From Candidatus Omnitrophota bacterium (GTDB lineage Bacteria; Omnitrophota; Gorgyraeia; Zapsychrales; Zapsychraceae): a stretch of 64,000 nt of DNA. The stretch covers positions 13,774-77,773 of the forward strand of contig JAHFGL010000008.1 of NCBI GenBank assembly GCA_023247445.1. Reading direction: 5' to 3'. Both the position numbers and the translations under genes were made by a program. Every line of letters begins with the position of its first letter. Position 1 is the first letter of the stretch. Shown here piece by piece: positions 19,300-36,474 of this stretch. The notes under the pieces are model-generated. The model had not been told where the DNA came from and did no database searches. It worked only from the letters and a program-made list of their open reading frames with translations.

Positions 19300-19312
19300 C
19301 AAGGGGGGAACG

Positions 19313-20386
19313 ATGCAAGACAAATTTAACATGGATGGACATAAACTTCATTGGCATCTCGATCGGGTTAATGATTTTATGCAGGGCAAAAGGATCGCGC
19401 CGCTTCACATCGATTTGGGAATCACCACTGGATGTAATATGGCCTGCACATATTGTTATGGCGTCATTCAAGGACGCACCGGTATGAGCACCCGTACCGA
19501 TATGCCGGCAGAAACGATTACCCGTTTTTTCAGAGATGCGAAAGAGGTAGGTGTTCGTTCAATTGCCATTATAGGGGAAGGGGAGAATACGGTTAACCCC
19601 GCTATTTGGGATGCCTTTGCCTGCGCTAAGGAGATTGGTTTGGACATCAGCCTTGCCACCAACGGCATGGTTGTTCCCAAAGATAAGATATATGACATGC
19701 TTTCAGCTTTGATGTGGATTAGAATCAATATCAGTGCCGCCGACCCGGAGGCATTTTACAAACTCCATAGGGTCAGACAATTTGAAAATGTTTGCAACAA
19801 TATTAAGGCGCTTGTGGCAGTCAAGAAGCAACATGGTTTGAAAACAACGATTGGAATGCAGATGGTTGTCATGGACAATAACATGGATCAAATTGTCCCT
19901 TTAGCCAAGTTAGGTAAGGAGCTAGGTGTTGACTATTTGGTCGTGAAAGCCTGTTCGGACACCAAAGAAAAAACTTTGGATTCACCCAGCGAAAAATATC
20001 TCGAAATTGAATCGACTTTAAAAGAAGCGGAGTCCTTAAGCGAAGGAGATTACCGCGTTATCATCAAGTGGCATAAGCTTCAGAATAAAGGAATTAAGGA
20101 TTATAAGGTCTGTTATGGAACAAATTTTATCCTCGCCATTAGCGGGAAGGGATGCGTGTATCCCTGCGGGCATTGGTTTGATATCCGATCGGATGAGTTT
20201 TTTATGGGTAATATCAATGAAACGTCTTTCAAGGACATCGTTGCCAGCGATCGCTACGCCGAGGTACAAAAGAGAATCCAAAAGGTCGATGTCAACTGTG
20301 AATGTGAGAGCAATTGCCGGCCGCACTATGTCAACCGATATTTGTGGCAATTAAAGAATCCGCCGGAACACGTCAATTTTGTTTAA
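19313..20386 (+). CDS. Radical SAM enzyme with a Cys-rich C-terminal (SPASM/twitch-like) region
   Basis: GCNMACTYCYG (CxxxCxxC), plus C-terminal CVYPCGHW and CECESNC. Start ATG 19313 after AAGGGGGG. The track ORF starts at 19277. Confidence 0.7.
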   Translation: MQDKFNMDGHKLHWHLDRVNDFMQGKRIAPLHIDLGITTGCNMACTYCYGVIQGRTGMSTRTDMPAETITRFFRDAKEVGVRSIAIIGEGENTVNPAIWDAFACAKEIGLDISLATNGMVVPKDKIYDMLSALMWIRINISAADPEAFYKLHRVRQFENVCNNIKALVAVKKQHGLKTTIGMQMVVMDNNMDQIVPLAKLGKELGVDYLVVKACSDTKEKTLDSPSEKYLEIESTLKEAESLSEGDYRVIIKWHKLQNKGIKDYKVCYGTNFILAISGKGCVYPCGHWFDIRSDEFFMGNINETSFKDIVASDRYAEVQKRIQKVDVNCECESNCRPHYVNRYLWQLKNPPEHVNFV

Positions 20387-21271: not shown

Positions 21272-22497
21272 GCTTTTACGATGTTTCCATGGAAATTATT
21301 TCTCGAGAGATAAAAAATAGGGACAATTTGCAAAAGGTTATTAAAAAAATTGAGACCGCTTCTAAAAATGGAAAGAAAATCGCGTTTTATCCTTCTGGGG
21401 TATACAGCCGAGTTATGTTAAAAGAAATCCGTCAGTACGCGCCGGAGCTTCTCTCAAAGGTGCTCGGTTGCTTTGATCGCTCCTCTGAAGCCACGATGGA
21501 AGGTGATGTTAACGTCTATGAATTGGCGGAATTAAACAAACTTAAAGATAAAATTGGTCTATTGGTGGTTACATCCAATACCTTTCATGCCAAGGAAATG
21601 AGACATATCCAGGAATTGACCAGCTATAAAGGCCGGGTTTTAAACACCTCGCGTTTTGATATCACATTTCCCGAGAAAAATGATAAAGAAATTATTGCTG
21701 ATATTAAAAAAGTTTACGATCTGTTAGCGGATCAAAAATCAAAGATGGCCTATCTTATTACATGGTTGTCACGTTTGCTTAATGACGAAGATTTGACATA
21801 CATATTCGAAAGTGAAGATACCCGGGACGTCGATGTGAGTAATCCTATTTTGAAATATAAAAACTATATGATTGAAGGGTTAGATGATGTATGCAAACAA
21901 GAACTCAACGCTGAACTTTATGAGATGAAATATGTGAAATCTTTACCCGGGGATGTCGTTTTTGACGTCGGCGCTTATAAAGGCGATACCGCGGTCTATT
22001 TCGCCGATCGTGTCGGCAAAAAGGGAAAAGTTTATTCTTTTGAGCCGGTTAAAGCCAATTACAATACGCTCGTCAAAAATATCAAGAGAAATAAACTAGA
22101 AGATATCATCGTTCCCATCAATAAAGGCTGCGCGCCTAAAACGGGCTCTTTAAAAATTGTTTCTTCGAATTCTGGTGCGCCATGGTCTTTTGTGTCGGAA
22201 AACAAGGGCATTGAGAATGTGGAAATGATCGCCCTGGATGATTTTATCCGATCCAATAAAATTGATAAACTTGATTTTATCAAAATGGATGTCGAGGGAT
22301 TCGAAGAGAGCGCTCTTCTTGGCGCCCAAGAAACCATTAAACAGTTTAGGCCCAAATTGGCCATTTGTCTTTATCATCTATCCAGCGATATATTGCGTAT
22401 TCCGTTTATGATCCATAAGTTGGCGGATTACAAGCTGTATGTCCGCTGCCAAATGGAAGGGCCATACGGGATTAATCTATACGGAATTAAAAAATAA
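21268..22497 (+). CDS. FkbM-family methyltransferase with an N-terminal extension
   Basis: FDVGAYKGDTAVYFA and IDFIKMDVEGFEESAL motifs in the C-terminal half. The N-terminal ~200 aa are unassigned. GTGA start overlap. Confidence 0.6.
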   Translation: MSFYDVSMEIISREIKNRDNLQKVIKKIETASKNGKKIAFYPSGVYSRVMLKEIRQYAPELLSKVLGCFDRSSEATMEGDVNVYELAELNKLKDKIGLLVVTSNTFHAKEMRHIQELTSYKGRVLNTSRFDITFPEKNDKEIIADIKKVYDLLADQKSKMAYLITWLSRLLNDEDLTYIFESEDTRDVDVSNPILKYKNYMIEGLDDVCKQELNAELYEMKYVKSLPGDVVFDVGAYKGDTAVYFADRVGKKGKVYSFEPVKANYNTLVKNIKRNKLEDIIVPINKGCAPKTGSLKIVSSNSGAPWSFVSENKGIENVEMIALDDFIRSNKIDKLDFIKMDVEGFEESALLGAQETIKQFRPKLAICLYHLSSDILRIPFMIHKLADYKLYVRCQMEGPYGINLYGIKK

Positions 22498-23750
22498 TGC
22501 GTGAATTTTTAATTTGTCAAATAGAACAAGCGAAAAAAGACCCTTTTAGAGTTTTACCCAAAAAGATAGGCCGGTTTCTGTTACTGATATTGGTCCTGCC
22601 GATTATTGCGGTTATCCGCCTGATCAGTCCCTGGATACTTATTCGATTTGGTCAGTTGCCCAGTAGCCGCCTCGGACCTTTTTCCATGTGCCCGGAGCTG
22701 TATTTCTGCGAACGTGACCAAGGTCTTCAGCCCAAAAGCGTTGATTTTTTTTACTGCAACAATGAAAAGATTGCGAATTCCTATTTAAAGAAAATGTGGG
22801 GACGCTTGCTTCACGTATCTTCTTTGACAAAAACATTTATATCTGCCAGCAAGCTATTACCGGGCCATAAAAGACATGGAATTGAACTTCCCCATGAACA
22901 CGATTATCGCGCGCTACTGGCTACAACAGAGCGGACTCATATTTACTTTACTGATGAAGAAAAAGAAAAAGGAAAGCAGTTTTTGGTCCAAAGAGGAGTT
23001 TCAACGAATCAAAAATTTGTTTGTTTCGCATCCAGAGATTCGGTTTACCTTAATACGGTGCAGCCGCAAAACAATTGGGATTATCATAATTATCGTGATT
23101 TTAATATACACGATTGCCTTCCAGCAGCGGAAGAATTGACCAAAAGAGGCTACACGCTATTTCGTATGGGGGCAATCGTTCAGGAAACGCTTAAGACGGA
23201 TAATCCTCGGATTATTGACTACGCAACACAGTTTCGCAATGAGTTCTTAGATATTTTTTTGTTAGGCAGTTGCCGTTTTTATTTGGGTTCTTTAAGTGGG
23301 ATTAACAGCGTCTCTATGATATTCCGCCGTCCTAAAGCGGTTGTCAACGCCGTTCCCATGGAGACGGTTCATACATGGATGCCAAATGATTTATTTATCC
23401 CAAAAAAGATATGGCATCATCGGGAAGGTCGTTTTTTGACTTTCGAAGAGATGCTCGATTCTAATATTGGAGGTTTTCATCGCGGCGATCAATACGCACA
23501 ACACGATTTGGAAGTGGTTAATAATACGGCCGAAGAAATAATGTCGTTGGCTGTGGAAATGGATGAACGGTTAAACGGTATTTGGCAAACGGCCGAAGGA
23601 GATGAGGCCCTGCAGGAACAGTTTCGAGAAATTTTCAGGCGGAAAACATGCCATCGAAAAATTCTCGCGCGGATCGGCCGAAATTTTTTAAGACAAAACC
23701 GTTGGTTATTAGAGGGGGAAAAGAGTGAAATCGTTAGTATTCATTTGTGA
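22497..23750 (+). CDS. Hypothetical protein, possible GT-B-like transferase
   Basis: 417 aa, no recognised motif except DIFLLGSCRFYLGSLSGINSV, a GT-B-like nucleotide-binding stretch. TAATG coupling to the upstream gene. Confidence 0.3.
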   Translation: MREFLICQIEQAKKDPFRVLPKKIGRFLLLILVLPIIAVIRLISPWILIRFGQLPSSRLGPFSMCPELYFCERDQGLQPKSVDFFYCNNEKIANSYLKKMWGRLLHVSSLTKTFISASKLLPGHKRHGIELPHEHDYRALLATTERTHIYFTDEEKEKGKQFLVQRGVSTNQKFVCFASRDSVYLNTVQPQNNWDYHNYRDFNIHDCLPAAEELTKRGYTLFRMGAIVQETLKTDNPRIIDYATQFRNEFLDIFLLGSCRFYLGSLSGINSVSMIFRRPKAVVNAVPMETVHTWMPNDLFIPKKIWHHREGRFLTFEEMLDSNIGGFHRGDQYAQHDLEVVNNTAEEIMSLAVEMDERLNGIWQTAEGDEALQEQFREIFRRKTCHRKILARIGRNFLRQNRWLLEGEKSEIVSIHL

Positions 23751-25518
23751 AATTTTTAAGAAATTTCCGTTTTTGCTGACCGCCAATGTTCTTTTGTTCG
23801 TGGTGGTAGGCGTCTTGGGGGCATGTTCGCTGTTATCCGCCGGGCCTTTGGTTGATTTTTTTCTCGATCCGCAATTACACAACGCAAGTGCTCTGACGAA
23901 GAAGGCGGTAGCGTTTTTGGCATCTTGGGGAATTCCGGCAACGCTCGCCACTTGGACGATTGTCCTTATCGTTTTTGTTGCTTTGGTCAATGTGTTTCAG
24001 GTTTTAGCCAGGCATTCCATTCTTAAGACCAAATACGCCGTATTGCGGGATTTGATGCTTGGGACATTTGAAGATTTTTTCAATACACGCTGGTATTTTT
24101 TCAGCAGCGGCAGACAGGGAATGTTGCTTAATACCTTTACACGCGAAATTACCGTCATTGGAGATGCCTTTGGAGCCATGGCGCTTTTTTTTGCCAATAT
24201 ATTACAATTGGGTTTTGCTCTTGTTATTCCATTTTATCTGTCGTGGCAGGTTACGTTAATTAGCCTCAGCGCCGCCTTACTGTTCGCCCTGCCGTTTGCC
24301 TTATTTAGCAAATACAGTTATCGTTTGGGAAAGCTTAATACGGCAACGGCTAATGAGATGACTTCGGTCGTGCATGAGAATCTCGCCGCCGCTAAACTTT
24401 TATTGGGATTCGGCAACCAGAAAAAAGGCAATGACCGTTTCGCCGAGGCTTTTGACGCGCACCGTTGTGTGACGGTGAAGTCTCAAATCATCAACATAGC
24501 CATTCCAATTCTCTATCGTCCTTTTGCGATTATTACGGTTGTTATTGCTTTATTTGCGGCACAGCGGTTCCATGTGCCGTTTTCTGAGATAACTATATTG
24601 TTGTTTGCTCTTTTACAAGTGGCGATTTCACTCAGCAGTATTACGACCCAAAAAAACGCCTTGGAGAATTTTTTCCCAAGTTATGAACAAATTAAGCATC
24701 TGCGCGAGCGTGCGCGTGAAATGCGTCAACCGCTGGGCAAAAGAGAATTCAAAGGTTTTAAAGAGAATATTATGGTTGAGCATTTGTCTTTCTCTTATCC
24801 GGGCCATGCGCCTGTCTTAAAAGAAGTAAATATTCGTATTGCTAAAGGTAAAATGATTGCGCTCGTCGGAAAATCCGGCGCAGGTAAGTCAACCTTAATT
24901 GATATTCTCATGGGCTTTCATCAACAGACCGCAGGGCGCATTATGTTCGATGGAATCTCTTTTCAAGAGTATGATACCAATTCATATCGTTGCTGTATTG
25001 GCTATGTGCCGCAGGACAGTGTTTTATTTAACATGAGCATTCGTGACAATTTGTTATGGGCAAACCCGAAAGCATCACAAAAGCAATTAGAAGAGGCTTG
25101 TCGTTTGGCTTATGCCGATGAATTTATCAGCCGTTTGCCGGAAGGGGATAACACCGTTGTTGGAGACCGTGGGGTGCGGCTTTCAGGCGGACAAATCCAG
25201 AGGATGGCCTTAGCCAGGGCTTTTGTCCGCTGTCCGGAACTTTTGATTTTAGATGAAGCGACCAGTTCGCTGGATACGCATTCCGAGAGGTTTATTCAAA
25301 AAGCTATTGAAAATATCGCAACCCAGACGACTGTGGTTGTTGTCGCGCATCGTCTTTCAACTATTAAGAAAGCGGATTGTATTTATGTTATGGAAAACGG
25401 CCAGATCGCAGAAGAAGGGACGTATGCGGATCTTGTTGGCAGCGAGGGCCGTTTTAATTCCATGGTTAAGCTTCAGGAGCTGGAAGTTCTTTCTACGAAT
25501 AATATGATCAAAATATGA
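23725..25518 (+). CDS. ABC exporter, fused permease-ATPase (MsbA/type I exporter-like)
   Basis: About 6 TM helices at the N-terminus. Walker A GKSGAGKST, signature LSGGQIQR and Walker B ILDEATS. GTG start after AGAGGGGGAA. Confidence 0.85.
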   Translation: MKSLVFICEIFKKFPFLLTANVLLFVVVGVLGACSLLSAGPLVDFFLDPQLHNASALTKKAVAFLASWGIPATLATWTIVLIVFVALVNVFQVLARHSILKTKYAVLRDLMLGTFEDFFNTRWYFFSSGRQGMLLNTFTREITVIGDAFGAMALFFANILQLGFALVIPFYLSWQVTLISLSAALLFALPFALFSKYSYRLGKLNTATANEMTSVVHENLAAAKLLLGFGNQKKGNDRFAEAFDAHRCVTVKSQIINIAIPILYRPFAIITVVIALFAAQRFHVPFSEITILLFALLQVAISLSSITTQKNALENFFPSYEQIKHLRERAREMRQPLGKREFKGFKENIMVEHLSFSYPGHAPVLKEVNIRIAKGKMIALVGKSGAGKSTLIDILMGFHQQTAGRIMFDGISFQEYDTNSYRCCIGYVPQDSVLFNMSIRDNLLWANPKASQKQLEEACRLAYADEFISRLPEGDNTVVGDRGVRLSGGQIQRMALARAFVRCPELLILDEATSSLDTHSERFIQKAIENIATQTTVVVVAHRLSTIKKADCIYVMENGQIAEEGTYADLVGSEGRFNSMVKLQELEVLSTNNMIKI

Positions 25519-26630
25519 GTAAAAATCCTTATATAAAAATAGCCAATCGTTTAGTCGGCCAAGACTATCCACCTTTAGTGATCGCTGAAATCGGCATTAA
25601 CCATGAAGGGAGTCTTAAAAAAGCGCTTCAAATGGTCGATGACGCGAAAAAAGCCGAATGTGAGTGCGTTAAGTTTCAATGTCATGTCATTGAAGATGAA
25701 ATGATTCCGGCGGCTAAATCCGTTATTCCAGGAAATGCTAAAGAAAGTATTTGGAATATTATGGAAAGATGCGCCCTTAGCGAAAAAGAGGAGGCGCATT
25801 TAAAAAAATACGTTGAATCGAAAGGCATGATTTATCTTTCAACGCCGTTTTCGCGCTCGGCGGCGGAAAGGTTAGAAAAAATGAAAGTAATAGCGTATAA
25901 AATTGGTTCCGGCGAATGTAATAATTATCCTTTAATCGAGCATATAGCTTCCTACGGCAAGCTCGTCATTCTTAGCACGGGTATGAATGATCTCTCAACT
26001 ATAACGCCAGCGGTTAAAATCTTAAGAAAGATGAGAGTTCCCTTTGCTTTAATGCATTGTACGTCCATGTATCCCACTCCTTACGCGAAGGTACGCTTGG
26101 GCGCTGTTTCCGAATTGGCTAAAACCTTTCCGGATGCCGTTCTTGGCTTAAGCGATCATTCATTGGGAATTTATACATGTCTTGCCTCGGTGGTTTTGGG
26201 CGCTAGTATTCTTGAGAAACATTTCACCTCCGATAAGACTTGGTCTGGCCCGGATGTTCCTATTTCCATAGATCCATTGGAGCTTAAAGAATTAATCGAG
26301 GGATCAAAAGCTATTCACCAGGCTCTGGGCGGGCAAAAAGATATTTTAGCTCAGGAACAGCCGACGATTGATTTTGCCTATGCGTGTGTTGTCTCAACGC
26401 GAGACATCCGCCAAGCAGAAGCGTTAACGAGGGAAAATATTTGGGTAAAACGTCCTGGAACGGGAGAGATTAAGGCAAAAGACTTTAATAATCTTTTAGG
26501 AAAAAAAGTCAACGTTAGTATTAAAAAAAATGAACAGTTAAAGTGGAATCAAATAATCCATGGTAAATATAGTTTAAACTTTAAGGAGGAAGAGTCCAAT
26601 GCGAATTTATCTCGCGCAATTAACACATGA
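25515..26630 (+). CDS. N-acylneuraminate/nonulosonate synthase (NeuB family) with C-terminal SAF domain
   Basis: IAEIGINHEGS signature. 371 aa, consistent with a TIM barrel plus antifreeze-like domain. Confidence 0.8.
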   Translation: MSKNPYIKIANRLVGQDYPPLVIAEIGINHEGSLKKALQMVDDAKKAECECVKFQCHVIEDEMIPAAKSVIPGNAKESIWNIMERCALSEKEEAHLKKYVESKGMIYLSTPFSRSAAERLEKMKVIAYKIGSGECNNYPLIEHIASYGKLVILSTGMNDLSTITPAVKILRKMRVPFALMHCTSMYPTPYAKVRLGAVSELAKTFPDAVLGLSDHSLGIYTCLASVVLGASILEKHFTSDKTWSGPDVPISIDPLELKELIEGSKAIHQALGGQKDILAQEQPTIDFAYACVVSTRDIRQAEALTRENIWVKRPGTGEIKAKDFNNLLGKKVNVSIKKNEQLKWNQIIHGKYSLNFKEEESNANLSRAINT

Positions 26631-28644
26631 AAGAAATAGCGTGTTTCAAAATCATTGCTTTCCTCTCGCGGTTGGTTTTATCGGATCGTATCTTAAAAAA
26701 GAGTTTGGAGAACAGGTTGACATTGAACTCTTTAAATCGACTAAAGATTTAAACGAGGCCTTTGCTAGGGCAACCCCGGATGTGCTTATGTTAAGTAGTT
26801 ATATGTGGAACTATAATCTTACTCTTTCTTACACCGAAGAAGCCCGGGCGCAATGTAAAGATTTATTGATTATCGTTGGTGGTCCTCATATTAGTCTCGA
26901 TCCGGCAGAACGCCAAAGATTTTTAAGAGAACACCCAGCCATTGATGCGTATGTACTATTTGAAGGGGAGAGGGTAGCTAAAGAAATCATAACCACGTTT
27001 CTAAACACCAAAAGCAGGGAAGCTGTTAAAAGACTGGCCGTAACACAGTCGGCAATTATTGCTGTTAATGCCAATGAAGATGTCGCTAAGACTTCAGGCG
27101 ATGTTGACCGCTTCAGCCGGATAGGCCTTAAAGGCTCCTCGCTTTCTTTGAATGATATTCCTTCTCCGTATTTAAATGGTATGTTTGATAAGTTCTTTAA
27201 AGATGCCGAGATCCCTTTGATTGAAACCAACCGTGGGTGTCCCTTTACCTGCTCGTTTTGCCAGCAAGGCGGTGAGTATTATACCAAGGTCGTTCATTTT
27301 GACGTTGAGCGTGTACGTCAAGAGATCATGTATATAGCAGACAAAATTGATAAAGAAAAAATTGATGCCTACGTGTTGGAGGTTGCGGATCCGAACTTTG
27401 GGATGTTTGAACGCGACCGCGAGATATGCGCCGCCATTAGAGAAGCTCAGGAGAAAACAGGTTATCCTAAATATGTCGGGTGTTCAACTGGAAAGAATAA
27501 GGCCGATGTCATTATCGAGAACACTTCTTTACTGCAGTTAGGGACCATTCAATTAAGAAGCGCCATGCAATCTTTGCACACAGAAACCTTGGATGCCATT
27601 AAGCGTAAAAATATAAAAGTAGACGCCTATTATCAGATTCAGAAAGATATGGATGCTAAGGGACTCGAAAATAATACCGACATGATGCTCGGGTTGCCTT
27701 TGGAAACCAAGAGCTCGCATTTTAAAGGGATTTTTGATTTGATTGATGCTGGCATCAGAGAATTTTCCTGCGTGCAAACAATAGTTCTTCCAGGGATAGA
27801 AATGGAACTTAAATCCTACAAGGAAAAATATGGCATAAAGACAAAATACCGTTTTATTCCAGAAGGGATCGGCCAGTACAACATTCTCGGTAAAGAGAAA
27901 AATGTCGCTGAAATAGAAGAAATCATTGTTCAGACAAACACGATGTCTTACGAGGATTATTTTGAATGCCGAAAATTGCATTTATTGTTAATGATATTCC
28001 ATAACACGAGATTATTGTCGACTGTTTATAAATACCTGGAAGACTTAAATATTAAAAAATCCGAAATCGTAAAACGCCTGTACGAATATTATCCTCAAAA
28101 CCAAACGCTTAAGAGTTTGCTTGAGGTTTTTAAACAGGACACAGAGAGCGAATTGTTCAATCAGTTAAGTGATATCAATTTTGATTCTCCCAATAATGAG
28201 GCTGTTTCTTACAATAAGATATTTAAACACTTATCCATTGTCTGGTTTGAACATAAAGATATTATCCTCGAGACTTTGACAACCGTTTTGTTGGATATTT
28301 TAGGCCCAGAAAATGCTTCTGAAATAGATGAATTGGTCGAAATTATCAGAATCGGAATGGTTGATCCCTTCCAATATCTTGAAAGGCGAGTGATTCAAAT
28401 TCAATCCAAGAAGCTGCAACGTGTTTTATCATCGCAGCTTGAATATTATCCCTCAGATAGGCAATTAACGACGATACGGATCATTAATAATTTGTATAAA
28501 ACACCTGAGGATAGGATCAATAAAATGGTTTATAAGCTAAGGCCGGTTAATTTGATGCTAAAGATTAGCTTGACCAAAAGTGAAGAGAGCTCGAACTCGA
28601 TGGCAACCTCGATGGCAACAGAGACCTCCGAAGCAGCTTATTAA
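26599..28644 (+). CDS. B12-binding radical SAM enzyme (class B-like) with a long C-terminal extension
   Basis: N-terminal cobalamin-binding-like domain, RGCPFTCSFCQQG cluster motif. 681 aa. AAGGAGGA RBS. Confidence 0.7.
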   Translation: MRIYLAQLTHERNSVFQNHCFPLAVGFIGSYLKKEFGEQVDIELFKSTKDLNEAFARATPDVLMLSSYMWNYNLTLSYTEEARAQCKDLLIIVGGPHISLDPAERQRFLREHPAIDAYVLFEGERVAKEIITTFLNTKSREAVKRLAVTQSAIIAVNANEDVAKTSGDVDRFSRIGLKGSSLSLNDIPSPYLNGMFDKFFKDAEIPLIETNRGCPFTCSFCQQGGEYYTKVVHFDVERVRQEIMYIADKIDKEKIDAYVLEVADPNFGMFERDREICAAIREAQEKTGYPKYVGCSTGKNKADVIIENTSLLQLGTIQLRSAMQSLHTETLDAIKRKNIKVDAYYQIQKDMDAKGLENNTDMMLGLPLETKSSHFKGIFDLIDAGIREFSCVQTIVLPGIEMELKSYKEKYGIKTKYRFIPEGIGQYNILGKEKNVAEIEEIIVQTNTMSYEDYFECRKLHLLLMIFHNTRLLSTVYKYLEDLNIKKSEIVKRLYEYYPQNQTLKSLLEVFKQDTESELFNQLSDINFDSPNNEAVSYNKIFKHLSIVWFEHKDIILETLTTVLLDILGPENASEIDELVEIIRIGMVDPFQYLERRVIQIQSKKLQRVLSSQLEYYPSDRQLTTIRIINNLYKTPEDRINKMVYKLRPVNLMLKISLTKSEESSNSMATSMATETSEAAY

Positions 28645-29801
28645 TGGGAGAATTAGAAACGATGCCTAAAAAAATACTTTTTATTACGAGTACTCGCGCC
28701 GATTTTGGCAAACTGAAACCGCTGATGAGAAAAGTTGAACAATCATCCGCGTTTGAATGTTATATCTTTGTTACGGGGATGCACATGCTTTCTCGTTACG
28801 GCTCAACGATTAATGAAATCAAAAAAAGTAATTTTAAGAATATTTTTCCCTATATGAACCAGATGGACAATAACGGTTTTGATATGGATATCGTTTTAGC
28901 AAATACCATCCAAGGTATCGGTCATTATAGTCGAGAATATAAGCCGGATATGATTGTTGTTCATGGGGATCGTGTGGAGGCTCTCGCTGGTGCTATTGTG
29001 GGAACATTAAATAATATCCTTGTGGCGCATATTGAGGGAGGTGAGGTATCCGGTACGGTGGATGAACTGATCCGTCACGCGGTCAGTAAATTGGCTCATC
29101 TTCATTTTGTCGCTAATGATGAAGCGCGTATGCGCTTGATTCAGATGGGAGAGACCAAGGATTCGATTTTCGTGATAGGCTCACCGGATATCGACGTAAT
29201 GCTTTCCGAGAGCCTGCCTACTTTACAGGAAGTTAAACAAAGATATGATATCCCGTTTGAGGAATATTTTATTTTTTCCTATCATCCCGTGACAACAGCT
29301 CTCCATAAATTGATACAGGATATTGATGTTGTGGTAGACACGATAAAAGATTCCAGACTCAATTTTATCATCATTTATCCCAACAATGACCGTGGTTCGG
29401 ATATTATTCTGGAATCGTTGAAACGTTTAGAAAACAACATGCGTTTTAAGCTTTTTTCTTCTCTGCGCTTTGAATATTTTTTAACGCTTCTTAAACACGC
29501 TAAGGCTATCGTGGGCAACTCCAGTGCTGGAATAAGGGAAGCGCCGGTTTACGGAGTCCCAACCATCAATATAGGCAATAGACAAATCAATCGATACCAG
29601 TATCCATCCATCGTGGATGTCCGCGAGAATAAGAGTGATATCCTTGGCGCTTTAAGAAATCTTCCTACGGGGATAAAACCGTCTTTGCATTTTGGCGACG
29701 GTAATAGCGCTGAAGCTTTTTTACAATACTTGCAAGATCCTGGATTTTGGTCAAGATCGTGCCAAAAACAATTCCAAAATTTTTCTGATGTTGTTTTATA
29801 G
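28644..29801 (+). CDS. neuC: UDP-N-acetylglucosamine 2-epimerase, hydrolysing (NeuC family)
   Basis: KILFITSTRADFGKL, GDRVEALAGAIVG and HIEGGEVSGTVDE. 385 aa. Confidence 0.8.
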   Translation: MGELETMPKKILFITSTRADFGKLKPLMRKVEQSSAFECYIFVTGMHMLSRYGSTINEIKKSNFKNIFPYMNQMDNNGFDMDIVLANTIQGIGHYSREYKPDMIVVHGDRVEALAGAIVGTLNNILVAHIEGGEVSGTVDELIRHAVSKLAHLHFVANDEARMRLIQMGETKDSIFVIGSPDIDVMLSESLPTLQEVKQRYDIPFEEYFIFSYHPVTTALHKLIQDIDVVVDTIKDSRLNFIIIYPNNDRGSDIILESLKRLENNMRFKLFSSLRFEYFLTLLKHAKAIVGNSSAGIREAPVYGVPTINIGNRQINRYQYPSIVDVRENKSDILGALRNLPTGIKPSLHFGDGNSAEAFLQYLQDPGFWSRSCQKQFQNFSDVVL

Positions 29802-29811
29802 AAAAAGTTAA

Positions 29812-30312
29812 ATGACTGCTCTTAAACATAAAAGAAAACGATTAGAATTTAAGAATATTGATTTAATCGTTTATGATTTTGACGGAGTCATGACCGACAA
29901 CCGTGTTTTGGTTTTTGATGACGGCCAAGAGGCTGTCTGGTGTAACCGCGCTGATGGATTGGCGATCAGTTTAATTAAAAAGGCAGGGATTCCCCAGATT
30001 ATTCTTTCCATGGAAGAGAACCCGGTTGTTGAGATCAGGGCCCATAAGCTCGGAATTGATGTTTTTTACGCAATAGAGGATAAAAAGACGGTGTTAATGG
30101 ATTATTGCCGCAAGAGTAATTATGATTTAAAGAAGGTCGTTTATGTTGGCAACGACATTAATGATTTGGAGGCTATGAAATTAGTTGGCTACGCGTTTGC
30201 GCCGCAAGACGCTAATATCCAAGTCAAGAATATAGCCATGATAGTTACAGAGAAAAAAGGCGGAGATGGTGTTATAAAAGAAATTTATGATCAATTTTTG
30301 AACCTTTCATAG
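29812..30312 (+). CDS. KdsC-family HAD phosphatase (ulosonate-phosphate phosphatase)
   Basis: IDLIVYDFDGVMTDN and GNDINDL. 166 aa. Confidence 0.75.
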   Translation: MTALKHKRKRLEFKNIDLIVYDFDGVMTDNRVLVFDDGQEAVWCNRADGLAISLIKKAGIPQIILSMEENPVVEIRAHKLGIDVFYAIEDKKTVLMDYCRKSNYDLKKVVYVGNDINDLEAMKLVGYAFAPQDANIQVKNIAMIVTEKKGGDGVIKEIYDQFLNLS

Positions 30313-30321
30313 GAGGAGACC

Positions 30322-31170
30322 ATGAGTATTTTTGTCATTGCTGAAATAGGGATTAATCATAATGGCGATGTTAATATAGCCAGACAGCTTATTGATGTCG
30401 CTAAAGATGCTGGTGCCGATGCGGTTAAATTCCAGAAAAGAACGATTGATTTAGTTTATTCTAAAGAATTCTTGGATTCACCGCGCGAAAGTCCATGGGG
30501 AATAACTCAGCGTCATCAAAAGGAAGGTCTCGAATTTGGCAAAAAAGGATACGACCAAATTGACGCTTATTGCAAAGAAAAGGATATCATCTGGTTTGCT
30601 TCCACCTGGGATCTAGAAAGCCAGAAGTTTCTTAGGCAGTATAAGCTTGCTTATAATAAAATTGCTTCCGCTATGCTGACTTACCGTGAGTTGTTGGAAA
30701 TGGTCGCTGAGGAGAGAAAAGACACATTTATTTCAACGGGCATGAGCGGGGAAAAAGAGATTGAAACTGCCATCAAGATATTTAGAAACGCGGGATGCCC
30801 GTTCGAATTGATGCACTGTGTTTCGACGTATCCTATGAACGATGAGGACGCTAATTTAAACTGCATTAAAACATTGCAGGAACGATTTCAATGTAAGGTT
30901 GGATACAGCGGCCATGAAGTCGGTTTAGCCATCTCTTATGCGGCGGCTGCGTTAGGGATTACTTCGCTGGAACGCCATATCACCTTAAGCCGGGCAATGT
31001 ATGGTTCCGATCAGGCGGCATCGGTTGAGCCGGCTGGTTTCCGGCAGTTAGTTGGCGCGGTAAGAAAAATTGAGAAGGCTCTAGGAAATGGGGAAATTAG
31101 CATTCACGAGAAAGAAATTCCTATCGCCCAGAAGTTAAGGGCGCATATCCCTTTAATGGTTAGTAAATAA
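30322..31170 (+). CDS. NeuB-family synthase paralogue lacking the SAF domain
   Basis: IAEIGINHNGD signature. 282 aa, TIM barrel only. Confidence 0.7.
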   Translation: MSIFVIAEIGINHNGDVNIARQLIDVAKDAGADAVKFQKRTIDLVYSKEFLDSPRESPWGITQRHQKEGLEFGKKGYDQIDAYCKEKDIIWFASTWDLESQKFLRQYKLAYNKIASAMLTYRELLEMVAEERKDTFISTGMSGEKEIETAIKIFRNAGCPFELMHCVSTYPMNDEDANLNCIKTLQERFQCKVGYSGHEVGLAISYAAAALGITSLERHITLSRAMYGSDQAASVEPAGFRQLVGAVRKIEKALGNGEISIHEKEIPIAQKLRAHIPLMVSK

Positions 31171-31184
31171 CTTAGAGATTTAAG

Positions 31185-31874
31185 ATGATAGAGATCAATA
31201 AAAAAAGACATGTTGTGGTGATTCCCGCACGCAGAGGGAGCAAAGGGTTTCCATTTAAGAACCGTCTTTTATTTGATGAGACGGCTGATTTTATCGATCG
31301 ACACGGCTGGTTTGATCAGGTGATTGTTTCGACTGATGATGAAATCGTTGAAGAAAAGACCATGGCCAGAGGGTATGTAATCCATGCTCGTCCGCAAGAG
31401 CTTAGCGGCGATGCCGTTTCCATCAAAAGGGTAATGCAATCTGTTATCCATGACTTGAAATTATCAAAAGATACTATCATGTGGTTGTTTTATTTGTCTA
31501 TTGTGTATAAAAATATATCAGATTTTCTAAAGGCAAAACAGATTATAGAAGAAGGGAAAGTCTTGAGCATATGTGGTTTTGTTCCGGCTAAATCGCACCC
31601 CTTCACATGTTGGTCTTATGACCAGAGGAATGGTATATTAAAGCAGTATATTAATAACGATATCTACCGCCGGCAGGATCGTCCCCGGGCTTGGACGTAT
31701 CACCATTACATCAGCTGTTTTAAAACCGCAGAAATAGAGCACCTTAACAGCGAACTTATTAATAATAAGACGTATCCCTTTTTTCTACAAAAGCAGAGGA
31801 TAGATCAACTGCTGGAAATCGATACTCCCGAGGAATATGAACAATGGAAGTCATTAGCTCAAAAAATCGTTTAA
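31185..31874 (+). CDS. Acylneuraminate cytidylyltransferase family (NeuA-like CMP-nonulosonate synthetase)
   Basis: VVIPARRGSKGFPFKN. 229 aa. Confidence 0.75.
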   Translation: MIEINKKRHVVVIPARRGSKGFPFKNRLLFDETADFIDRHGWFDQVIVSTDDEIVEEKTMARGYVIHARPQELSGDAVSIKRVMQSVIHDLKLSKDTIMWLFYLSIVYKNISDFLKAKQIIEEGKVLSICGFVPAKSHPFTCWSYDQRNGILKQYINNDIYRRQDRPRAWTYHHYISCFKTAEIEHLNSELINNKTYPFFLQKQRIDQLLEIDTPEEYEQWKSLAQKIV

Positions 31875-32761
31875 GAAGACAGCCCATTCTCGATAAAACA
31901 GCCGCTATTTACCGCAGATTGGGTATTATTCAAGGCAGATTGTCACCGGCGGTTGACAATAAAATACAATCCTTTCCTAAAGGACAGTGGCAGAATGAAT
32001 TTTTGTTGTGTAAGGAATTAGGGATCAGTTGTATCGAATGGATTTTTGAGTATGATGGAGCAGGAAATAATCCATTGTGTTCAGATTCCGGTATCAGGGA
32101 AATGCTAAGGGTGCAGCAGCAATACGGCGTGGTGATTAATTCCGTATTGGCTGATTATTTTATGGTTAAAAAATTATTTAGTGAGGATAAAAAAGAGACT
32201 GAGGAAGCGATCAGCACTTTAAATTTTATCATTACTCAATGCCAACTGTGTCATATCCCTATAATTGAAATTCCCTTTGTGGATTCCTCTTCTTTAAACA
32301 CAGAAAAAGACAAAGAAAGAGCAGTGCATAATTTAAAACAACCGCTAAGGTATGCTCAGGAGTGCGGCATAAAAATCAGCATGGAAACCTCTTTGGCGCC
32401 AAAGGAGTTTAAAGGATTTATTCATGCCCTTGATTCATCGGCAGTAGGAGCCAATTACGATACGGGTAACAGCGCATCATTAGGTTATGATCCCTATGAG
32501 GAGATTGATGTTCTTGGTGAATATATTGTCAATGTGCATATCAAAGATAGACTAAAAGCTGCAGGAACGGTGCCTTTGGGTTGTGGTGACACAGACTTCT
32601 CTGCTGTTTTTAAAGCTTTAAAAGCTAAGAATTATAGGGGAGATTTTATGCTGCAAGGAGCACGTCAATATCTCGAAGGATTGGAAACAAAAAAAGATAT
32701 TAAAGAAACCATCTGTAGTTATATAAATTTTGTGAAGCCGTTTTTGAGGGAATTCGCATGA
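31844..32761 (+). CDS. Sugar-phosphate isomerase/epimerase (xylose-isomerase-like TIM barrel)
   Basis: IVNVHIKD motif. 305 aa. The true start may be TTG 31919. Confidence 0.6.
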   Translation: MEVISSKNRLRRQPILDKTAAIYRRLGIIQGRLSPAVDNKIQSFPKGQWQNEFLLCKELGISCIEWIFEYDGAGNNPLCSDSGIREMLRVQQQYGVVINSVLADYFMVKKLFSEDKKETEEAISTLNFIITQCQLCHIPIIEIPFVDSSSLNTEKDKERAVHNLKQPLRYAQECGIKISMETSLAPKEFKGFIHALDSSAVGANYDTGNSASLGYDPYEEIDVLGEYIVNVHIKDRLKAAGTVPLGCGDTDFSAVFKALKAKNYRGDFMLQGARQYLEGLETKKDIKETICSYINFVKPFLREFA

Positions 32762-33816
32762 ACGTACTATTTTTTGGTTTAGGCAGTGTTGGACAGCGGC
32801 ATTTGCGCAATTTGTTGAAAATAAATCCGGACGCCCGTATCGCCGCGATAAGAAAAAAGGGACGATTATTTGAAATCGGATATGATTTACAACCCGATTA
32901 TAATACTGATATTGTCAGGAAATATAAGATTGAGCTCTTTTCATCGCTGAAGGAGGCAAAAGCCTTTAACCCTGATTTTGCTATTGTGGCTAATCCAACA
33001 AGCCAGCATGTACCTACAGCGCTGGAATTGGCAGCCAATGATATCCCGATTTTTTTGGAAAAACCTATTTCGGAGAGTTTTGATCAGCTTCAAGACTTGG
33101 TACAGCTTGCTCAAGAACGAGACGTCCCCATCATGGTCGGATATATGATGAGATTTCATCCAGGCGCTATCAAAATGAAAGAATTGATTGACAATAAAAA
33201 AATCGGAAAAATTTATTCGGTTATTTTGATCGTCAATTCTTACATGCCCTCCTGGCATAAGTATGAGCAATACAATGAATCTTACGCCGGGAAAAAATCG
33301 TTGGGTGGTGGAGTGGTGGTTACCGAAATCCATGAACTCGATCTTTTAAACTGGTATTTTGGATCTCCCCAAAGGCTCTGGGCAGTGGGAGGTAAATTGA
33401 GCTCCCTTGATATTGATGTGGAAGATACCGTTGGTATTTTGTTTGAACAAGAGTTCGATAGAGAAAAATTCCCCATTGTGATTAATATGTCATTTGCCCA
33501 AAAGGCCATGTCACGTAAAATGCTGATCCATGGAGAACGCGGAAAAATTGAGTGGGATATTCTTGCCTCAAAAATAACGGTTGAAGATAAGGCGGATAAC
33601 CAACAGCAAGTGTATGACTATCCTGAGTTTCAGCGTAACGACATGTTTATCACCGAGCTTAAATATTTTATAGAATGTCTTAATAAAAAAACAGAGCCGT
33701 CGACTTCTTTGAATAAAGTTCTGGGGGGACATTCAACGGCATTGGCTATAAAGGATTCGCTGGATACCAAATCAATCGTCGAATACCCCGATGTACTAAG
33801 ACGGGTGACAGTGTAA
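32758..33816 (+). CDS. Gfo/Idh/MocA family oxidoreductase
   Basis: VLFFGLGSVGQRH Rossmann, EKP motif. ATGA overlap. Confidence 0.7.
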   Translation: MNVLFFGLGSVGQRHLRNLLKINPDARIAAIRKKGRLFEIGYDLQPDYNTDIVRKYKIELFSSLKEAKAFNPDFAIVANPTSQHVPTALELAANDIPIFLEKPISESFDQLQDLVQLAQERDVPIMVGYMMRFHPGAIKMKELIDNKKIGKIYSVILIVNSYMPSWHKYEQYNESYAGKKSLGGGVVVTEIHELDLLNWYFGSPQRLWAVGGKLSSLDIDVEDTVGILFEQEFDREKFPIVINMSFAQKAMSRKMLIHGERGKIEWDILASKITVEDKADNQQQVYDYPEFQRNDMFITELKYFIECLNKKTEPSTSLNKVLGGHSTALAIKDSLDTKSIVEYPDVLRRVTV

Positions 33817-33826
33817 GGATAGAAAA

Positions 33827-35650
33827 ATGGTCATTCTAGGACTTCATGACAATCATGGTGCAAGTGCCGCGCTTCTTGTGGATGGAAAAGTTGTCGCGGC
33901 CGTTGAAGAGGAGCGTTTCACTCGGCTTAAAATGGATTCTGGATTTCCAAAGATGGCCATAGACTATCTTCGCGGCCAATATAAAGAAGAATTCCGTAAT
34001 CTAGACTATGTCGCCATTGGATGTGTTTATCAATCCCTTAAAGATTTTGCCACTAAACGCTACCCGTTGTTTGGAATCAAAGATTTCTTAATTGAAGAAG
34101 AAAAATTTTGGATTCCGGTTCTTGAAGGAAAGAATCCAAATTACATGGATGTTATGAAAGAATATGTGAATTCCTCTCTCTGCCATTATCCTCTTGATAC
34201 AATTAAAAATCCTTCCAATCATAATGAAATTCGAAAGATACGCCAGACATTTATCGCCGAGTATTTAAACATACCCATCGAAAAAGTTGGATTTGTTGAC
34301 CATCATGCCTGCCACGCGCATCACGCTTATTTCTCGAGCCCATTACGTAAGGATGTCCTTATATTTACCATCGATGGATGGGGGGATTTTACCAATGCTA
34401 CCGTGCACTCTGTAGAAAAGAATGGTGAATTAAAATGTCTTTACCGCACAGAAAATTGCCACATTGGCCACGTTTATCGTTTTATTACGATGCTTTTAGG
34501 CATGAAACCCGCGGAACACGAATATAAGGTAATGGGGCTGGCTGCTTACGCCAAGGAACATTACATCCGTGAACCTTTAAAGGTCTTTGAACAAACATAT
34601 TATGTTGATGGACTTGAATTTAAAATCGGCACGCCAATTAAAAATCACTATCAATATTTTAAGAAGCGTTTGGAAGGATTCCGTTTTGATGCTATCGCCG
34701 GTGCCGTACAGCGTTATACGGAAAATATGCTTGTCCAATGGGTCAAGAATTGGGTGGAACATACCGGATTTTCCAATGTTGTGTTTAGCGGTGGATTAGC
34801 CTTAAATATCAAAGCATCCAAACGGATTTCAGAATTGCCGCAGATTAAAGACATGTTTGTGTGTATGGCCAGCGGAGACGAATCGTTATCCATAGGAGCG
34901 GCTCAGAAAAAGTGGGTGGATTTGGCCGGCGCCGCTGAACTGCAACCAATCACAGCACCTTATTTGGGGCCGGGGTTCGATGAAAAGGATATCAAAGAGG
35001 CCCTGACTCATCCATTTGTCCGTGATCATTACAAGATTATTGAGAAAATTTCTCTTGTGGATATTGCCAAGCTTCTTGTACGCGGGGAAATTGTGGCTTT
35101 TATGATGTCCAATATGGAATTTGGGCCGCGGGCACTAGGCCACAGATCCATTCTCGCAGATCCACGGGATGAAAAGATCGTGCGAGTGATTAATGAAGCG
35201 ATCAAAAACCGGGATTTTTGGATGCCATTTACACCGAGTATCCTAGAAGAGCGCGCCGAGGATTATTTAATAAATCCAAAAAAGCTTAAGGCCCCGTATA
35301 TGACGATGGCTTTTGACGCGACGCAGAAAGCTAAAGACGAACTTAAAGCGGCAATCCATCCTTATGATATGACATTGCGCCCCCAAGTTGTCATGAAAAA
35401 ATACTCTCCCCGTTACCATGCTTTGATCCGTGAGTTTGAATGTTTGACCGGCGTCGGTGGGTTGCTTAATACGTCTTTTAATATTCATGGGAAACCCATT
35501 GTGCGTAAACCCATTGATGCGATTCGTGAGGTGATATCTCATGAGCTAGTGGATTTAAAATATGTCGTTTTGGATGATGTTTTGCTGGAAAAAAATATGG
35601 CGCGCAAACAGAAAACAATTATTAAACAGGAACAGCTGGCAGAGTTATGA
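33827..35650 (+). CDS. Carbamoyltransferase (NodU/CmcH family)
   Basis: MVILGLHDNHGASAALLVDGKVVAAVEEERFTR is the canonical N-terminus. 607 aa. Confidence 0.8.
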   Translation: MVILGLHDNHGASAALLVDGKVVAAVEEERFTRLKMDSGFPKMAIDYLRGQYKEEFRNLDYVAIGCVYQSLKDFATKRYPLFGIKDFLIEEEKFWIPVLEGKNPNYMDVMKEYVNSSLCHYPLDTIKNPSNHNEIRKIRQTFIAEYLNIPIEKVGFVDHHACHAHHAYFSSPLRKDVLIFTIDGWGDFTNATVHSVEKNGELKCLYRTENCHIGHVYRFITMLLGMKPAEHEYKVMGLAAYAKEHYIREPLKVFEQTYYVDGLEFKIGTPIKNHYQYFKKRLEGFRFDAIAGAVQRYTENMLVQWVKNWVEHTGFSNVVFSGGLALNIKASKRISELPQIKDMFVCMASGDESLSIGAAQKKWVDLAGAAELQPITAPYLGPGFDEKDIKEALTHPFVRDHYKIIEKISLVDIAKLLVRGEIVAFMMSNMEFGPRALGHRSILADPRDEKIVRVINEAIKNRDFWMPFTPSILEERAEDYLINPKKLKAPYMTMAFDATQKAKDELKAAIHPYDMTLRPQVVMKKYSPRYHALIREFECLTGVGGLLNTSFNIHGKPIVRKPIDAIREVISHELVDLKYVVLDDVLLEKNMARKQKTIIKQEQLAEL

Positions 35651-36474
35651 ATACTTTAGGAAAATTTCGACTGGATGGAAAAATTGCCGTTATTACTGGC
35701 GGAGCCGGTCTTTTGGGCGTTAAACATGCAACAGTGATCGCCGAAGCTGGAGGCATTCCAGTTCTATGGGATGTTAATGAAAAAGCCATGCAAGATTGTG
35801 CTAAGAAAATGAAGCGTCAATATGATGCGGATTGCTTGGCTATAGATGTTGATATTACCAATCTCGGATCGATTCGCAATGGCCTCAAAAAAGTGTTAAA
35901 AAAGTTTAATAAAATTGACGTCCTTATTAACAATGCTGCCAATAATCCCAAAATGGATGGAAAAAGTAATCCAGCCTGGGGCCGCTTAGAGAATTTCGCT
36001 TTTGATTTATGGCAGAAGGATATTTCCGTTGGATTGACAGGCGCTTTTCTTTGCAGTCAAGTTATCGGATCACATATGGCTGAACATAACGGCGGGATTA
36101 TCCTCAATGTCGCTTCCGATCTTGGCGTTATTGCGCCTGATCAAAGGGTATATCAGAGAAAAGGATTGAGGGACTATGAACAACCAGTTAAACCAGTTAC
36201 GTATTCTGTTGTTAAACACGGTATCATCGGTTTGACGAAATATTTAGCGACCTATTGGGCGCATAAAAGTATCCGTGTGAATGCCATCTCCCCAGGAGGA
36301 ATTTACGCTGGTCAGTCAATAGAATTTGTTCGAAAATTAATTGATAGGATTCCCTTAGGGCGTATGGCTAATCAAGATGAGTATATGGCCGCTGTCCTTT
36401 TTTTGGTCTCGGATGCCTCGGCGTATATGACGGGGTCTAATCTTGTTATGGACGGCGGCAGGACATGTTGGTAG
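35647..36474 (+). CDS. Classical short-chain dehydrogenase/reductase
   Basis: KIAVITGGAGLLG, NNAA and YxxxK. 275 aa. Confidence 0.8.
   Translation: MNTLGKFRLDGKIAVITGGAGLLGVKHATVIAEAGGIPVLWDVNEKAMQDCAKKMKRQYDADCLAIDVDITNLGSIRNGLKKVLKKFNKIDVLINNAANNPKMDGKSNPAWGRLENFAFDLWQKDISVGLTGAFLCSQVIGSHMAEHNGGIILNVASDLGVIAPDQRVYQRKGLRDYEQPVKPVTYSVVKHGIIGLTKYLATYWAHKSIRVNAISPGGIYAGQSIEFVRKLIDRIPLGRMANQDEYMAAVLFLVSDASAYMTGSNLVMDGGRTCW

Follow-up and report, generated by a model that had tools for sequence, protein, structure and literature searches.

INTRODUCTION

Nonulosonic acids (NulOs) cap bacterial surface glycans and flagellins and shape phage susceptibility, immune recognition, and motility. To our knowledge, the NulO tailoring described so far is N- or O-linked. 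The enzymes TokK, ThnK, CysS, and KedN5 methylate unactivated sp3 carbons, often iteratively, and GenK (on an aminoglycoside sugar carbon) and Fom3 (on a cytidine monophosphate [CMP]-linked hydroxyethylphosphonate) provide a precedent for cobalamin (B12)-dependent radical S-adenosylmethionine (SAM) enzymes that methylate CH2OH-type carbons of sugars or of CMP-activated substrates. Among the described systems closest to the one considered here, Leptospira interrogans carries, in one surface-glycan cluster, two NulO synthases and two CMP-synthetases (Ricaldi et al. 2012, PMC3438082). Its second synthase, an atypical enzyme for which a phosphorylated substrate has been proposed, is fused to an endonuclease-like domain (PMC3438082); we read this domain as belonging to the AP_endonuc_2 family. 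Magnetospirillum gryphiswaldense has a CMP-activated acid that resembles legionaminic (Leg) or pseudaminic (Pse) acid but whose backbone is longer by one carbon (Kleikamp et al. 2020, PMC8157484; 10.64898/2026.04.20.719630); the marker fragment of this C10 acid lies at m/z 311.10, versus 297.09 (PMC8157484; bioRxiv 10.64898/2026.04.20.719630), and neither study assigns genes to it (PMC8157484; 10.64898/2026.04.20.719630). Here, we analyzed a 64,000-nt stretch of a Candidatus Omnitrophota contig (hereafter, the window), in which the genes for the NulO synthase NeuB and the epimerase NeuC flank a B12 radical SAM gene, with a second NeuB gene downstream.

The presence of two NeuBs, which an earlier note on this window had treated as unusual because canonical clusters have a single copy, is not unprecedented, given the two NulO synthases of L. 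interrogans (PMC3438082). Literature searches for radical SAM or B12 together with nonulosonic, sialic, or pseudaminic acid found nothing relevant, and those for radical SAM together with NeuB returned only unrelated papers. Thus, two NeuBs in one cluster are not new, whereas we found no published radical SAM gene for the tailoring of nonulosonic acids. We consider it moderately probable that the window encodes a two-module ulosonic-acid block, in which the radical SAM enzyme C-methylates a nonulosonate made by NeuB and NeuC (module A), while an SAF-less NeuB and a phosphatase make a second acid (module B). From the domain identities, fold, synteny, and gene fusions described below, we infer all of the substrates, the order of the steps, and the methylation and its position.

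RESULTS

Six genes had been placed at 25515–31874 by the earlier note, and all six open reading frames (ORFs) lie on the + strand at exactly those coordinates, in an order that proved correct gene by gene: a long NeuB with an SAF domain (25515–26630), a B12 radical SAM protein of 681 aa (26599–28644), NeuC (28644–29801), a KdsC-like HAD phosphatase (29812–30312), a short, SAF-less NeuB (30322–31170), and a CMP-sugar synthetase (31185–31874). Hidden Markov model searches found each expected domain in its ORF: PF03102 (243.8 bits) and PF08666 (35 bits) in the long NeuB; PF02310 (51.5 bits) and PF04055 (31.6 bits) in the radical SAM protein, above both Pfam cut-offs (32.1 and 29.5 bits, respectively); PF02350 (Epimerase_2, 264.8 bits) in NeuC; PF03102 (236.4 bits) in the short NeuB; and PF02348 (CTP_transf_3, 28.6 bits with a cut-off of 22.6) in the synthetase. 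Adjoining genes in this region overlap or abut. The start and stop codons of the radical SAM gene overlap both of its neighbors, the NeuC start codon overlapping its stop codon, and an AAGGAGG ribosome-binding site stands 8 nt upstream of its start codon. Promoter-like and terminator-like sites in the region showed no excess over shuffled sequence, and a 15-gene block (approximately 22497–40791) is apparently co-transcribed.

The radical SAM protein is a putative TokK/CysS-like C-methyltransferase. Its sequence matches among solved structures were TokK (E 3e-44), CysS (7e-32), and, very weakly, AprD4 (1.4e-4), with no others; a 26-sequence profile gave 1e-59, 9e-53, and 1e-5, respectively. GenK and Fom3 were not among the solved-structure or NCBIfam matches, no direct comparison with them having been made. 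The cysteines of the CxxxCxxC motif (C214, C218, and C221) are invariant across 44 homologues, and the invariant W70 aligns with W76 of TokK. The AF2 model (pLDDT 86.8) matched TokK over its full length in Foldseek with a TM of 0.71–0.75 (approximately 720 columns) and CysS with 0.63–0.70, the C-terminal domain included, and TsrM, AprD4, and OxsB reached at most 0.48 (query-normalized TM). The protein is a separate clade within the TokK/CysS/KedN5 structural group. Because TokK and CysS were the best matches both by sequence and by full-length fold, a TokK-type methylase is the best-supported reaction class for the predicted activity.

The same radical chemistry might instead tailor the nonulosonate without methylating it. 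It might dehydrate a 1,2-diol of the glycerol side chain or deoxygenate that chain (in an AprD4-like manner, with a short-chain dehydrogenase/reductase [SDR] as the reductase), or bring about an epimerization or rearrangement, so that a sialic acid with its backbone complete would become a deoxy or epimeric acid. AprD4 is indeed among the weak matches (NCBIfam 31.9 bits; PDB E 1.4e-4; Foldseek TM 0.39–0.60), the block conserves both an SDR and an oxidoreductase, and the core block has no LegB/LegC/LegH set beside the long NeuB. However, TokK and CysS match better than AprD4 by approximately 30 to 50 orders of magnitude, and do so along the entire protein, C-terminal domain and all; moreover, the minimal NeuB-NeuC-NeuA-radical SAM clusters of two loci described below (L087 and L096) have neither the SDR nor the GFO oxidoreductase. 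We regard tailoring without methylation as quite improbable.

Other identities for this protein were discarded. It is not a housekeeping BchE or HemN, a point on which the earlier note's interpretation stood: the BchE model gave 43 bits (cut-off 481), and HemN appeared only as a remote fold match. A viral origin of the clade was set aside, IMG/VR giving only relatives of 28–30% identity. A fixed pair of radical SAM enzyme and O-methyltransferase, following the logic of CysS and KedN5, was unsupported, since the nearby methyltransferases are not orthologous across loci. The window contains three further radical SAM genes (19277–20386, 40812–42392, and 51135–52769), one of the SPASM type and two B12-binding, and four in one sugar locus seems many. 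The two B12-binding genes did not reach E 1e-20 against the TokK-like one, which rules out a single paralogous family of three.

For the linkage to NulO synthesis, we pooled 168 loci, called their ORFs, ranked the radical SAM homologues by their score to the window protein, and sought NeuB-family and NeuC genes in the same locus. At scores of at least 480 bits (at least 39% identity), NeuB-family genes were present in 7 of 8 loci and NeuC in 7; between 250 and 480 bits, the numbers were 8 and 4 among 54 loci; and below 250 bits, 2 and 1 among 102. Because NeuB accompanies 7 of the 8 close homologues and only 2 of the 102 distant ones, the close homologues look like a nonulosonate-tailoring clade, as judged by gene content. 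NeuB and NeuC lay at most 7 kb away in all seven positive loci of the top tier, and in the eighth (L004), Pfam identified an Epimerase_2 gene 1.8 kb downstream, shortly before the contig ends. Furthermore, there are approximately 60 protein clusters (90% identity) at 38% identity or more to the radical SAM protein, and those sampled lie beside NeuB and NeuC.

The surroundings of the shared genes differ widely. A gammaproteobacterial metagenome-assembled genome (L003) keeps NeuB and NeuC beside the radical SAM gene. Two flagellin-glycosylation islands with 25% GC carry HisF/HisH-type amidotransferase genes, flagellins, and Maf proteins: L005 (1–21962), with two flagellins, a 1409-aa Maf, the trio of NeuB, radical SAM, and NeuC, and a second, SAF-less NeuB; and L087 (1–16336), with NeuB, NeuC, the HisF/HisH genes, NeuA, radical SAM, a pyruvyltransferase, and Maf. 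In L096, the order is NeuB, NeuC, one other gene, radical SAM, and NeuA. More distant radical SAM members stand beside Leg/Pse-like sets (L136 and L131) or beside a short NeuB (L099 and L100). Across the close loci, identity to the window drops broadly in parallel for radical SAM, NeuB, and NeuC, as in co-inheritance. The NulO module is not "interrupted" by the radical SAM gene, as the earlier note had it; the gene is an integral, co-inherited member. Of that note's suggestion of a C-methylated or otherwise radical-modified nonulosonate, the link to NulO synthesis is borne out by conserved synteny, and the methylation, substrate, and position are what we infer.

An enzyme placed in this way could also act on another component of the glycan (a different sugar, or a lipid or peptide acceptor), its position between NeuB and NeuC then reflecting operon packing. 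The window has many other sugar pathways and the three additional radical SAM genes, and homologues with no more than 35% identity are mostly found in settings other than NulO synthesis. This explanation nevertheless appears very unlikely, in that NeuB and NeuC remain neighbors of the close-clade gene in 7 of 8 loci whose other genes are wholly different (an O-antigen-like locus, a gammaproteobacterial locus, and flagellin islands), and the start and stop codons overlap those of both neighbors.

Besides its glycosyltransferases and Epimerase_2 gene, the stretch of L004 that carries the radical SAM homologue (43% identical; 1–15129 of a 235.9-kb contig) encodes a DNA polymerase B, a dUTPase-like protein, and a PDDEXK nuclease; this contig may be a large virus or mobile element.

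In module A, the long NeuB is of the NeuB/LegI type. It shares 55% identity (423 bits) with N. meningitidis NeuB (1xuu) and keeps 16 of 17 checked residues, including H215, H236, and R314; the equivalents of E25, K53, K129, S213, H215, E234, H236, and D247 in 1xuu are conserved. Following the Neisseria structure work, we take the two His residues to bind the metal and the Lys, Glu, and Ser residues to bind phosphoenolpyruvate (PEP). In the NeuB family, the SAF (antifreeze-like) domain supplies an Arg to the active site of the partner subunit, and the SAF domain of the long NeuB (35 bits) has a WVKRPG motif containing the R314 equivalent. Against TIGR03569 (NeuB_NnaB, cut-off 399.65 bits), the long copy scored 364 bits and the short copy 245 bits, both under the cut-off; by their Pfam matches, the two are members of the family, not certified equivalogs. 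With NeuB as the only reference, the long copy is a predicted synthase of the N-acetylneuraminic acid (Neu5Ac) or legionaminic type. NeuC, a hydrolyzing NDP-HexNAc 2-epimerase of the NeuC/LegG type, scored above the equivalog cut-off of TIGR03568 (NeuC/NnaA; 415 vs 235.9 bits). Because they share only 32% identity, the long and short NeuBs are ancient paralogues, and a recent duplication is ruled out.

In module B, the short NeuB, a candidate ulosonate-phosphate synthase, ends at 282 aa without an SAF domain. Its AEIGINH, KFQ, STG, YP, SGH, and ERH motifs align to the long copy, and the metal-binding His residues and PEP motifs are kept. Its nearest solved structure is 6ncs (E 5e-48), a 290-aa SAF-less NeuB, and all of its matches belong to the NeuB family, ruling out the Kdo8P- or DAHP-synthase identity that the earlier note had weighed. 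The family is large, with hundreds of 90%-identity clusters at approximately 78% identity and 1963 representatives at E ≤1e-30. The adjacent phosphatase is a cap-less HAD-IIIA protein of 166 aa with a DFDGV motif, of the KdsC or Kdn-9-P phosphatase type, that scored below the specific NCBIfam cut-offs for both Kdn-9-P phosphatase (99.8 bits; 180) and the KdsC subfamily (93.8 bits; 106.95). Among PDB entries, it matched 3mmz (127 bits) better than the BT1713 entries 3e81/3e8m (87 bits), and these better than KdsC entries (54–77 bits). The cytidylyltransferase is a divergent CMP-ulosonate synthetase-like protein whose PF02348 match covers residues 10–85 only; PseF (TIGR03584) matched it over its full length with 45 bits against a cut-off of 205.7, and its nearest PDB entries are the CMP-Neu5Ac synthetases 6ifd and 1eyr (33–37 bits).

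Natural fusions unite the members of this module. P0270 is a CTP_transf_3-HAD-NeuB fusion, P0284 is a HAD-NeuB fusion, and P0281 and P0300 carry a cytidylyltransferase. The window HAD shares 42% identity (E 4e-42) with the corresponding domain of P0270 and 37% with that of P0284; the short NeuB is 50% and 45% identical to the respective NeuB domains, and the cytidylyltransferase is 25% identical, over its full length, to the cytidylyltransferase domain of P0270. In other loci (L165–L167 and L178), the short NeuB has a GmhA-like SIS isomerase upstream and a cytidylyltransferase downstream, and L100 also has a HAD gene; by analogy, this arrangement follows the logic of the Kdo pathway. The fusions support the phosphorylated intermediate that the earlier note had read from the KdsC-type phosphatase. 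Together, the HAD/NeuB fusions, the order of scores relative to BT1713, and the Kdo-like gene sets support a predicted order of synthase, phosphatase, and CMP activation.

The loci L165–L167 and L178 also revealed a recurrent five-gene module (near position 10001; 2198–7209 in L178) of GmhA-like SIS, short NeuB (78–80% identical to that of the window), CTP_transf_3, class IV aminotransferase, and a small SPASM radical SAM protein, often followed by LIC12162-family proteins and methyltransferases. We know of no assigned product for this module.

The two NeuBs might alternatively be two routes to one sugar, the long copy using N-acetylmannosamine (ManNAc) from NeuC and the short copy, with the HAD phosphatase, using ManNAc-6-P as in animals, so that no second acid would be made. 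An animal-like Neu5Ac route has been proposed for the second synthase of L. interrogans (Ricaldi et al., PMC3438082), an APH-family kinase lies 8 kb upstream, the block has a single cytidylyltransferase, and in P0335 (963 aa) the pair occurs as a fusion of two NeuB domains with one SAF and one cytidylyltransferase domain. Yet members of the short NeuB family elsewhere lack a NeuC and stand beside a GmhA-like SIS and a cytidylyltransferase of their own (L165–L167, L178, and L100), and are therefore not dependent on a ManNAc supply. Conversely, the trio of radical SAM, NeuB, and NeuC occurs without a short NeuB in L003, L087, and L096, and the low identity of the two paralogues (32%) likewise speaks against a shared product. 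A shared product is, on balance, improbable, and we prefer the reading in which module B makes a second acid.

The unit is larger than the six genes to which the earlier note confined it: it ends well beyond 31874, taking in AP_endonuc_2, GFO, carbamoyltransferase, SDR, and candidate transferase genes. Six other metagenomic loci (L001, L002, L086, L168, L176, and L177), whose radical SAM proteins are 54–78% identical to that of the window, share its gene order, making seven in all: TIGR04372 glycosyltransferase, ABC exporter, long NeuB, radical SAM, NeuC, HAD, short NeuB, a variable slot, divergent cytidylyltransferase, Aminotran_3, AP_endonuc_2, GFO, SDR, a 393-aa protein, the PFTS protein, and the MptE-like protein. 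Because the same order recurs in six other loci, the six-gene arrangement is not due to chance. The tailoring genes vary between loci, at fixed slots of the block. In the relatives, a formyltransferase, GNAT, or methyltransferase occupies the variable slot; the window has neither a gene in this slot nor Aminotran_3, and carries a carbamoyltransferase after GFO instead.

The upstream flank consists of a 417-aa putative glycosyltransferase of the TIGR04372 family (22497–23750, + strand, as are all genes of the block; 218 bits with a cut-off of 45), with homologues at the same place in L001, L002, and L086, and a 597-aa ABC exporter with fused TMD and NBD (ABC_membrane and ABC_tran; 23725–25518), directly upstream of the long NeuB, with 59–68% identical homologues at the same place in L001, L002, L086, and L176. 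Downstream of the six genes, a xylose-isomerase-like TIM barrel (AP_endonuc_2; 31844–32761; PF01261 86.1 bits, with weak matches to UlaE, an L-ribulose-5-P 3-epimerase) is a putative keto-sugar epimerase or isomerase and is kept at 64–67% identity in L001, L002, L168, and L176. It is followed by a GFO/IDH/MocA NAD(P) oxidoreductase (32758–33816; PF01408, PF22725, and PF02894, with weak matches to IolG and UDP-GlcNAc 3-dehydrogenase), which putatively oxidizes a sugar C-OH to C=O and has 68% identical homologues in L001 and L002. The NodU/CmcH-type carbamoyltransferase (33827–35650; Carbam_trans_N 129.7 bits, Carbam_trans_C 189.6 bits) was found in the window only and is absent from L001, L002, L086, L168, and L176, most of which have the class III aminotransferase Aminotran_3 plus a formyltransferase, GNAT, or methyltransferase, placed elsewhere in the block. 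The PtmA-like SDR (35647–36474; adh_short_C2 145 bits, NF006619 171 bits, FlagModPtmA 115 bits) is kept in all relatives.

Toward the end of the block, a conserved 393-aa protein (36512–37693) has 57–74% identical homologues at the same place in L001, L086, and L168 and no Pfam or NCBIfam match. Next to it is a PFTS-motif polysaccharide biosynthesis protein (37695–39578; TIGR04417 34.9 bits), a candidate transferase or polymerase, with PF27878, a family that one source calls "polysaccharide biosynthesis PFTS motif protein," in all homologues; its AF2 model (pLDDT 88.6) matched GT-B folds in Foldseek (trehalose-6-P synthase, UDP-GlcNAc 2-epimerase, and TagF). Finally, an MptE-like (Maf/PseD-like) protein (39748–40791; PF01973 59.3 bits, FlagModPseD domain 49.5 bits), with homologues at the same place in L168, L176, and L177, is a candidate nonulosonate transferase.

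The 64-kb window as a whole is a single, unbroken + strand glycan locus of approximately 60 genes: over positions 1–64000, the real-looking ORFs of at least 120 aa are all on the + strand and the GC skew stays positive, with a GC content of 36–46%. This layout recalls the very long one-strand O-antigen loci of Leptospira. The closest named relatives of the window proteins are from Omnitrophica and Syntrophorhabdaceae, not Leptospira. Split transketolase pairs (N and C halves) occur at 17528–19299, with the SPASM radical SAM gene and an RmlD-like reductase downstream, and at 43128–44899, with a B12 radical SAM gene and a PseF-like cytidylyltransferase (42409–43131) upstream; these two pairs may serve two-carbon sugar extension. 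The start of the window (409–7893) has a separate gene set comprising a class I/II aminotransferase, a KdsB-like cytidylyltransferase (above one subfamily cut-off), two GFO oxidoreductases, a GmhA-like SIS, a 2-hydroxyacid dehydrogenase, an IMPase-like phosphatase, and a NanM-like sugar O-methyltransferase, for which no synthase is visible inside the window. A HAD-like protein with a DFDNT motif, followed by an APH-family kinase (15770–17537), comes just after two DegT aminotransferases and could form a sugar kinase/phosphatase pair, a possible source of a phosphorylated substrate. At 45569–47727, a DUF4915 protein adjoins a sulfotransferase-family protein, which hints at a sulfated glycan.

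DISCUSSION

Taken together, the earlier interpretation was supported as to the synthase families, the radical SAM class, the phosphorylated intermediate, and the link to NulO synthesis, and needed correction as to the rarity of two NeuBs, the "interrupted" module, and the extent of the unit. The pathway that we propose would begin with NeuC, which would hydrolyze and 2-epimerize an NDP-HexNAc to a manno-configured sugar; the long NeuB would condense this sugar with PEP to a nonulosonic acid of the Neu5Ac or legionaminic type. The radical SAM enzyme would abstract a hydrogen by means of the 5'-deoxyadenosyl radical and, with methyl-cobalamin, place one or more methyl groups on an unactivated sp3 carbon of the nonulosonate or of a pathway intermediate, candidate sites being the terminal C9, an N-acyl methyl, and an O-methyl group. 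In module B, the short NeuB would combine PEP with a sugar phosphate (Man-6-P, ManNAc-6-P, or heptose-7-P), the KdsC-like phosphatase would remove the terminal phosphate, and the cytidylyltransferase would activate the acid. The GFO oxidoreductase, TIM barrel, and SDR may form a trio that re-tailors one hydroxyl by oxidation, epimerization, and reduction; this position is probably O-carbamoylated in the window, and in the relatives it would be transaminated and then N-formylated, N-acetylated, or methylated. The TIGR04372 glycosyltransferase, the PFTS GT-B protein, and the MptE-like protein are candidate transferases, and the ABC protein is a candidate exporter.

Several observations weigh against this pathway. 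Some enzymes with a B12 domain and a radical SAM core (AprD4, OxsB, and BchE) are not methylases. The best NCBIfam model for the radical SAM protein, the KedN5 family of methylcobalamin-dependent C-methylases, scored 194 bits, far under its cut-off of 700, and the SAM methyltransferases neighboring its gene are not orthologous between loci. The substrates of TokK and CysS are pantetheinyl-linked (carbapenam and aminobenzoate) and not sugars, so that the analogy covers the type of reaction only. The long NeuB could be a legionaminic-type synthase (LegI). Activation of one of the two acids is unaccounted for, the divergent cytidylyltransferase being the only one in the block; a PseF-like gene at 42409 lies outside it. 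There is no kinase or isomerase within the block, a GmhA-like SIS lying 25 kb upstream (4487–5107) and an APH-family kinase at 16446. Finally, although P0369 is a NeuB-SAF-AP_endonuc_2 fusion, its AP_endonuc_2 domain has no pairwise similarity to the AP_endonuc_2 protein of the window, and such fusions are therefore weak as direct support for the TIM-barrel gene.

If the proposal is true, a dedicated B12 radical SAM C-methylase would bring carbon-carbon bond formation into sialic-acid chemistry. The radical SAM clade also provides a marker for genome mining. The trio of SAF-less NeuB, HAD, and cytidylyltransferase, backed by natural fusions, would define a widespread Kdo-like route via a phosphorylated intermediate, and the NeuB family concerned is both very large and highly conserved. 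We also put forward, as an unlikely but specific extension, that the TokK-like enzymes linked to NeuB and NeuC are backbone C-methylases (acting, for example, at C9) that turn a nine-carbon into a ten-carbon acid and are the genetic basis of the C10 CMP-ulosonic acids of Magnetospirillum, and that the block may also make higher-carbon acids by another route, with the SAF-less NeuB joining PEP to heptose-7-phosphate from a GmhA-like isomerase. The block thus offers a testable candidate gene for ten-carbon ulosonic acids of unexplained genetic origin.

Compared with known systems, the block resembles the neuABC(D) and legBCHGIF clusters and the ptm genes of Campylobacter in its NeuC, its 55%-identical NeuB, its PtmA-like SDR, and its Maf/MptE-like candidates. 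It differs from these canonical clusters in having a radical SAM gene between NeuB and NeuC and a second, SAF-less synthase with its own phosphatase, and in having no NeuD or LegH acetyltransferase. Module B shares with the Kdn pathway of B. thetaiotaomicron (synthase BT1714, phosphatase BT1713) a NeuB-family synthase and a cap-less HAD of the tetrameric type; however, the window HAD falls under the equivalog cut-off (99.8 vs 180 bits), and its best structural relative is the uncharacterized HAD 3mmz. The radical SAM protein has the N-terminal B12 domain, CxxxCxxC core, and C-terminal helical domain of TokK, ThnK, CysS, and KedN5, the group that holds its best sequence and fold matches, although identity to the TokK/CysS group is approximately 20% and the window gene stands in a glycan-synthesis context. 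With L. interrogans, the window has in common the two synthases in one cluster; an aminotransferase adjoins the second synthase of L. interrogans, and family names derived from Leptospira (LIC12162, LIC13510-type, and PFTS) recur in the window and its relatives. In contrast, no radical SAM enzyme was described for the L. interrogans cluster (PMC3438082), and the window has a separate KdsC-like HAD and a separate AP_endonuc_2 gene. As for Magnetospirillum, the closest flagellin-island relatives in our analysis have 25% GC and are therefore not Magnetospirillum; the C10 acid of M. gryphiswaldense is the type of product expected from a backbone C-methylase or from a heptose-using NeuB.

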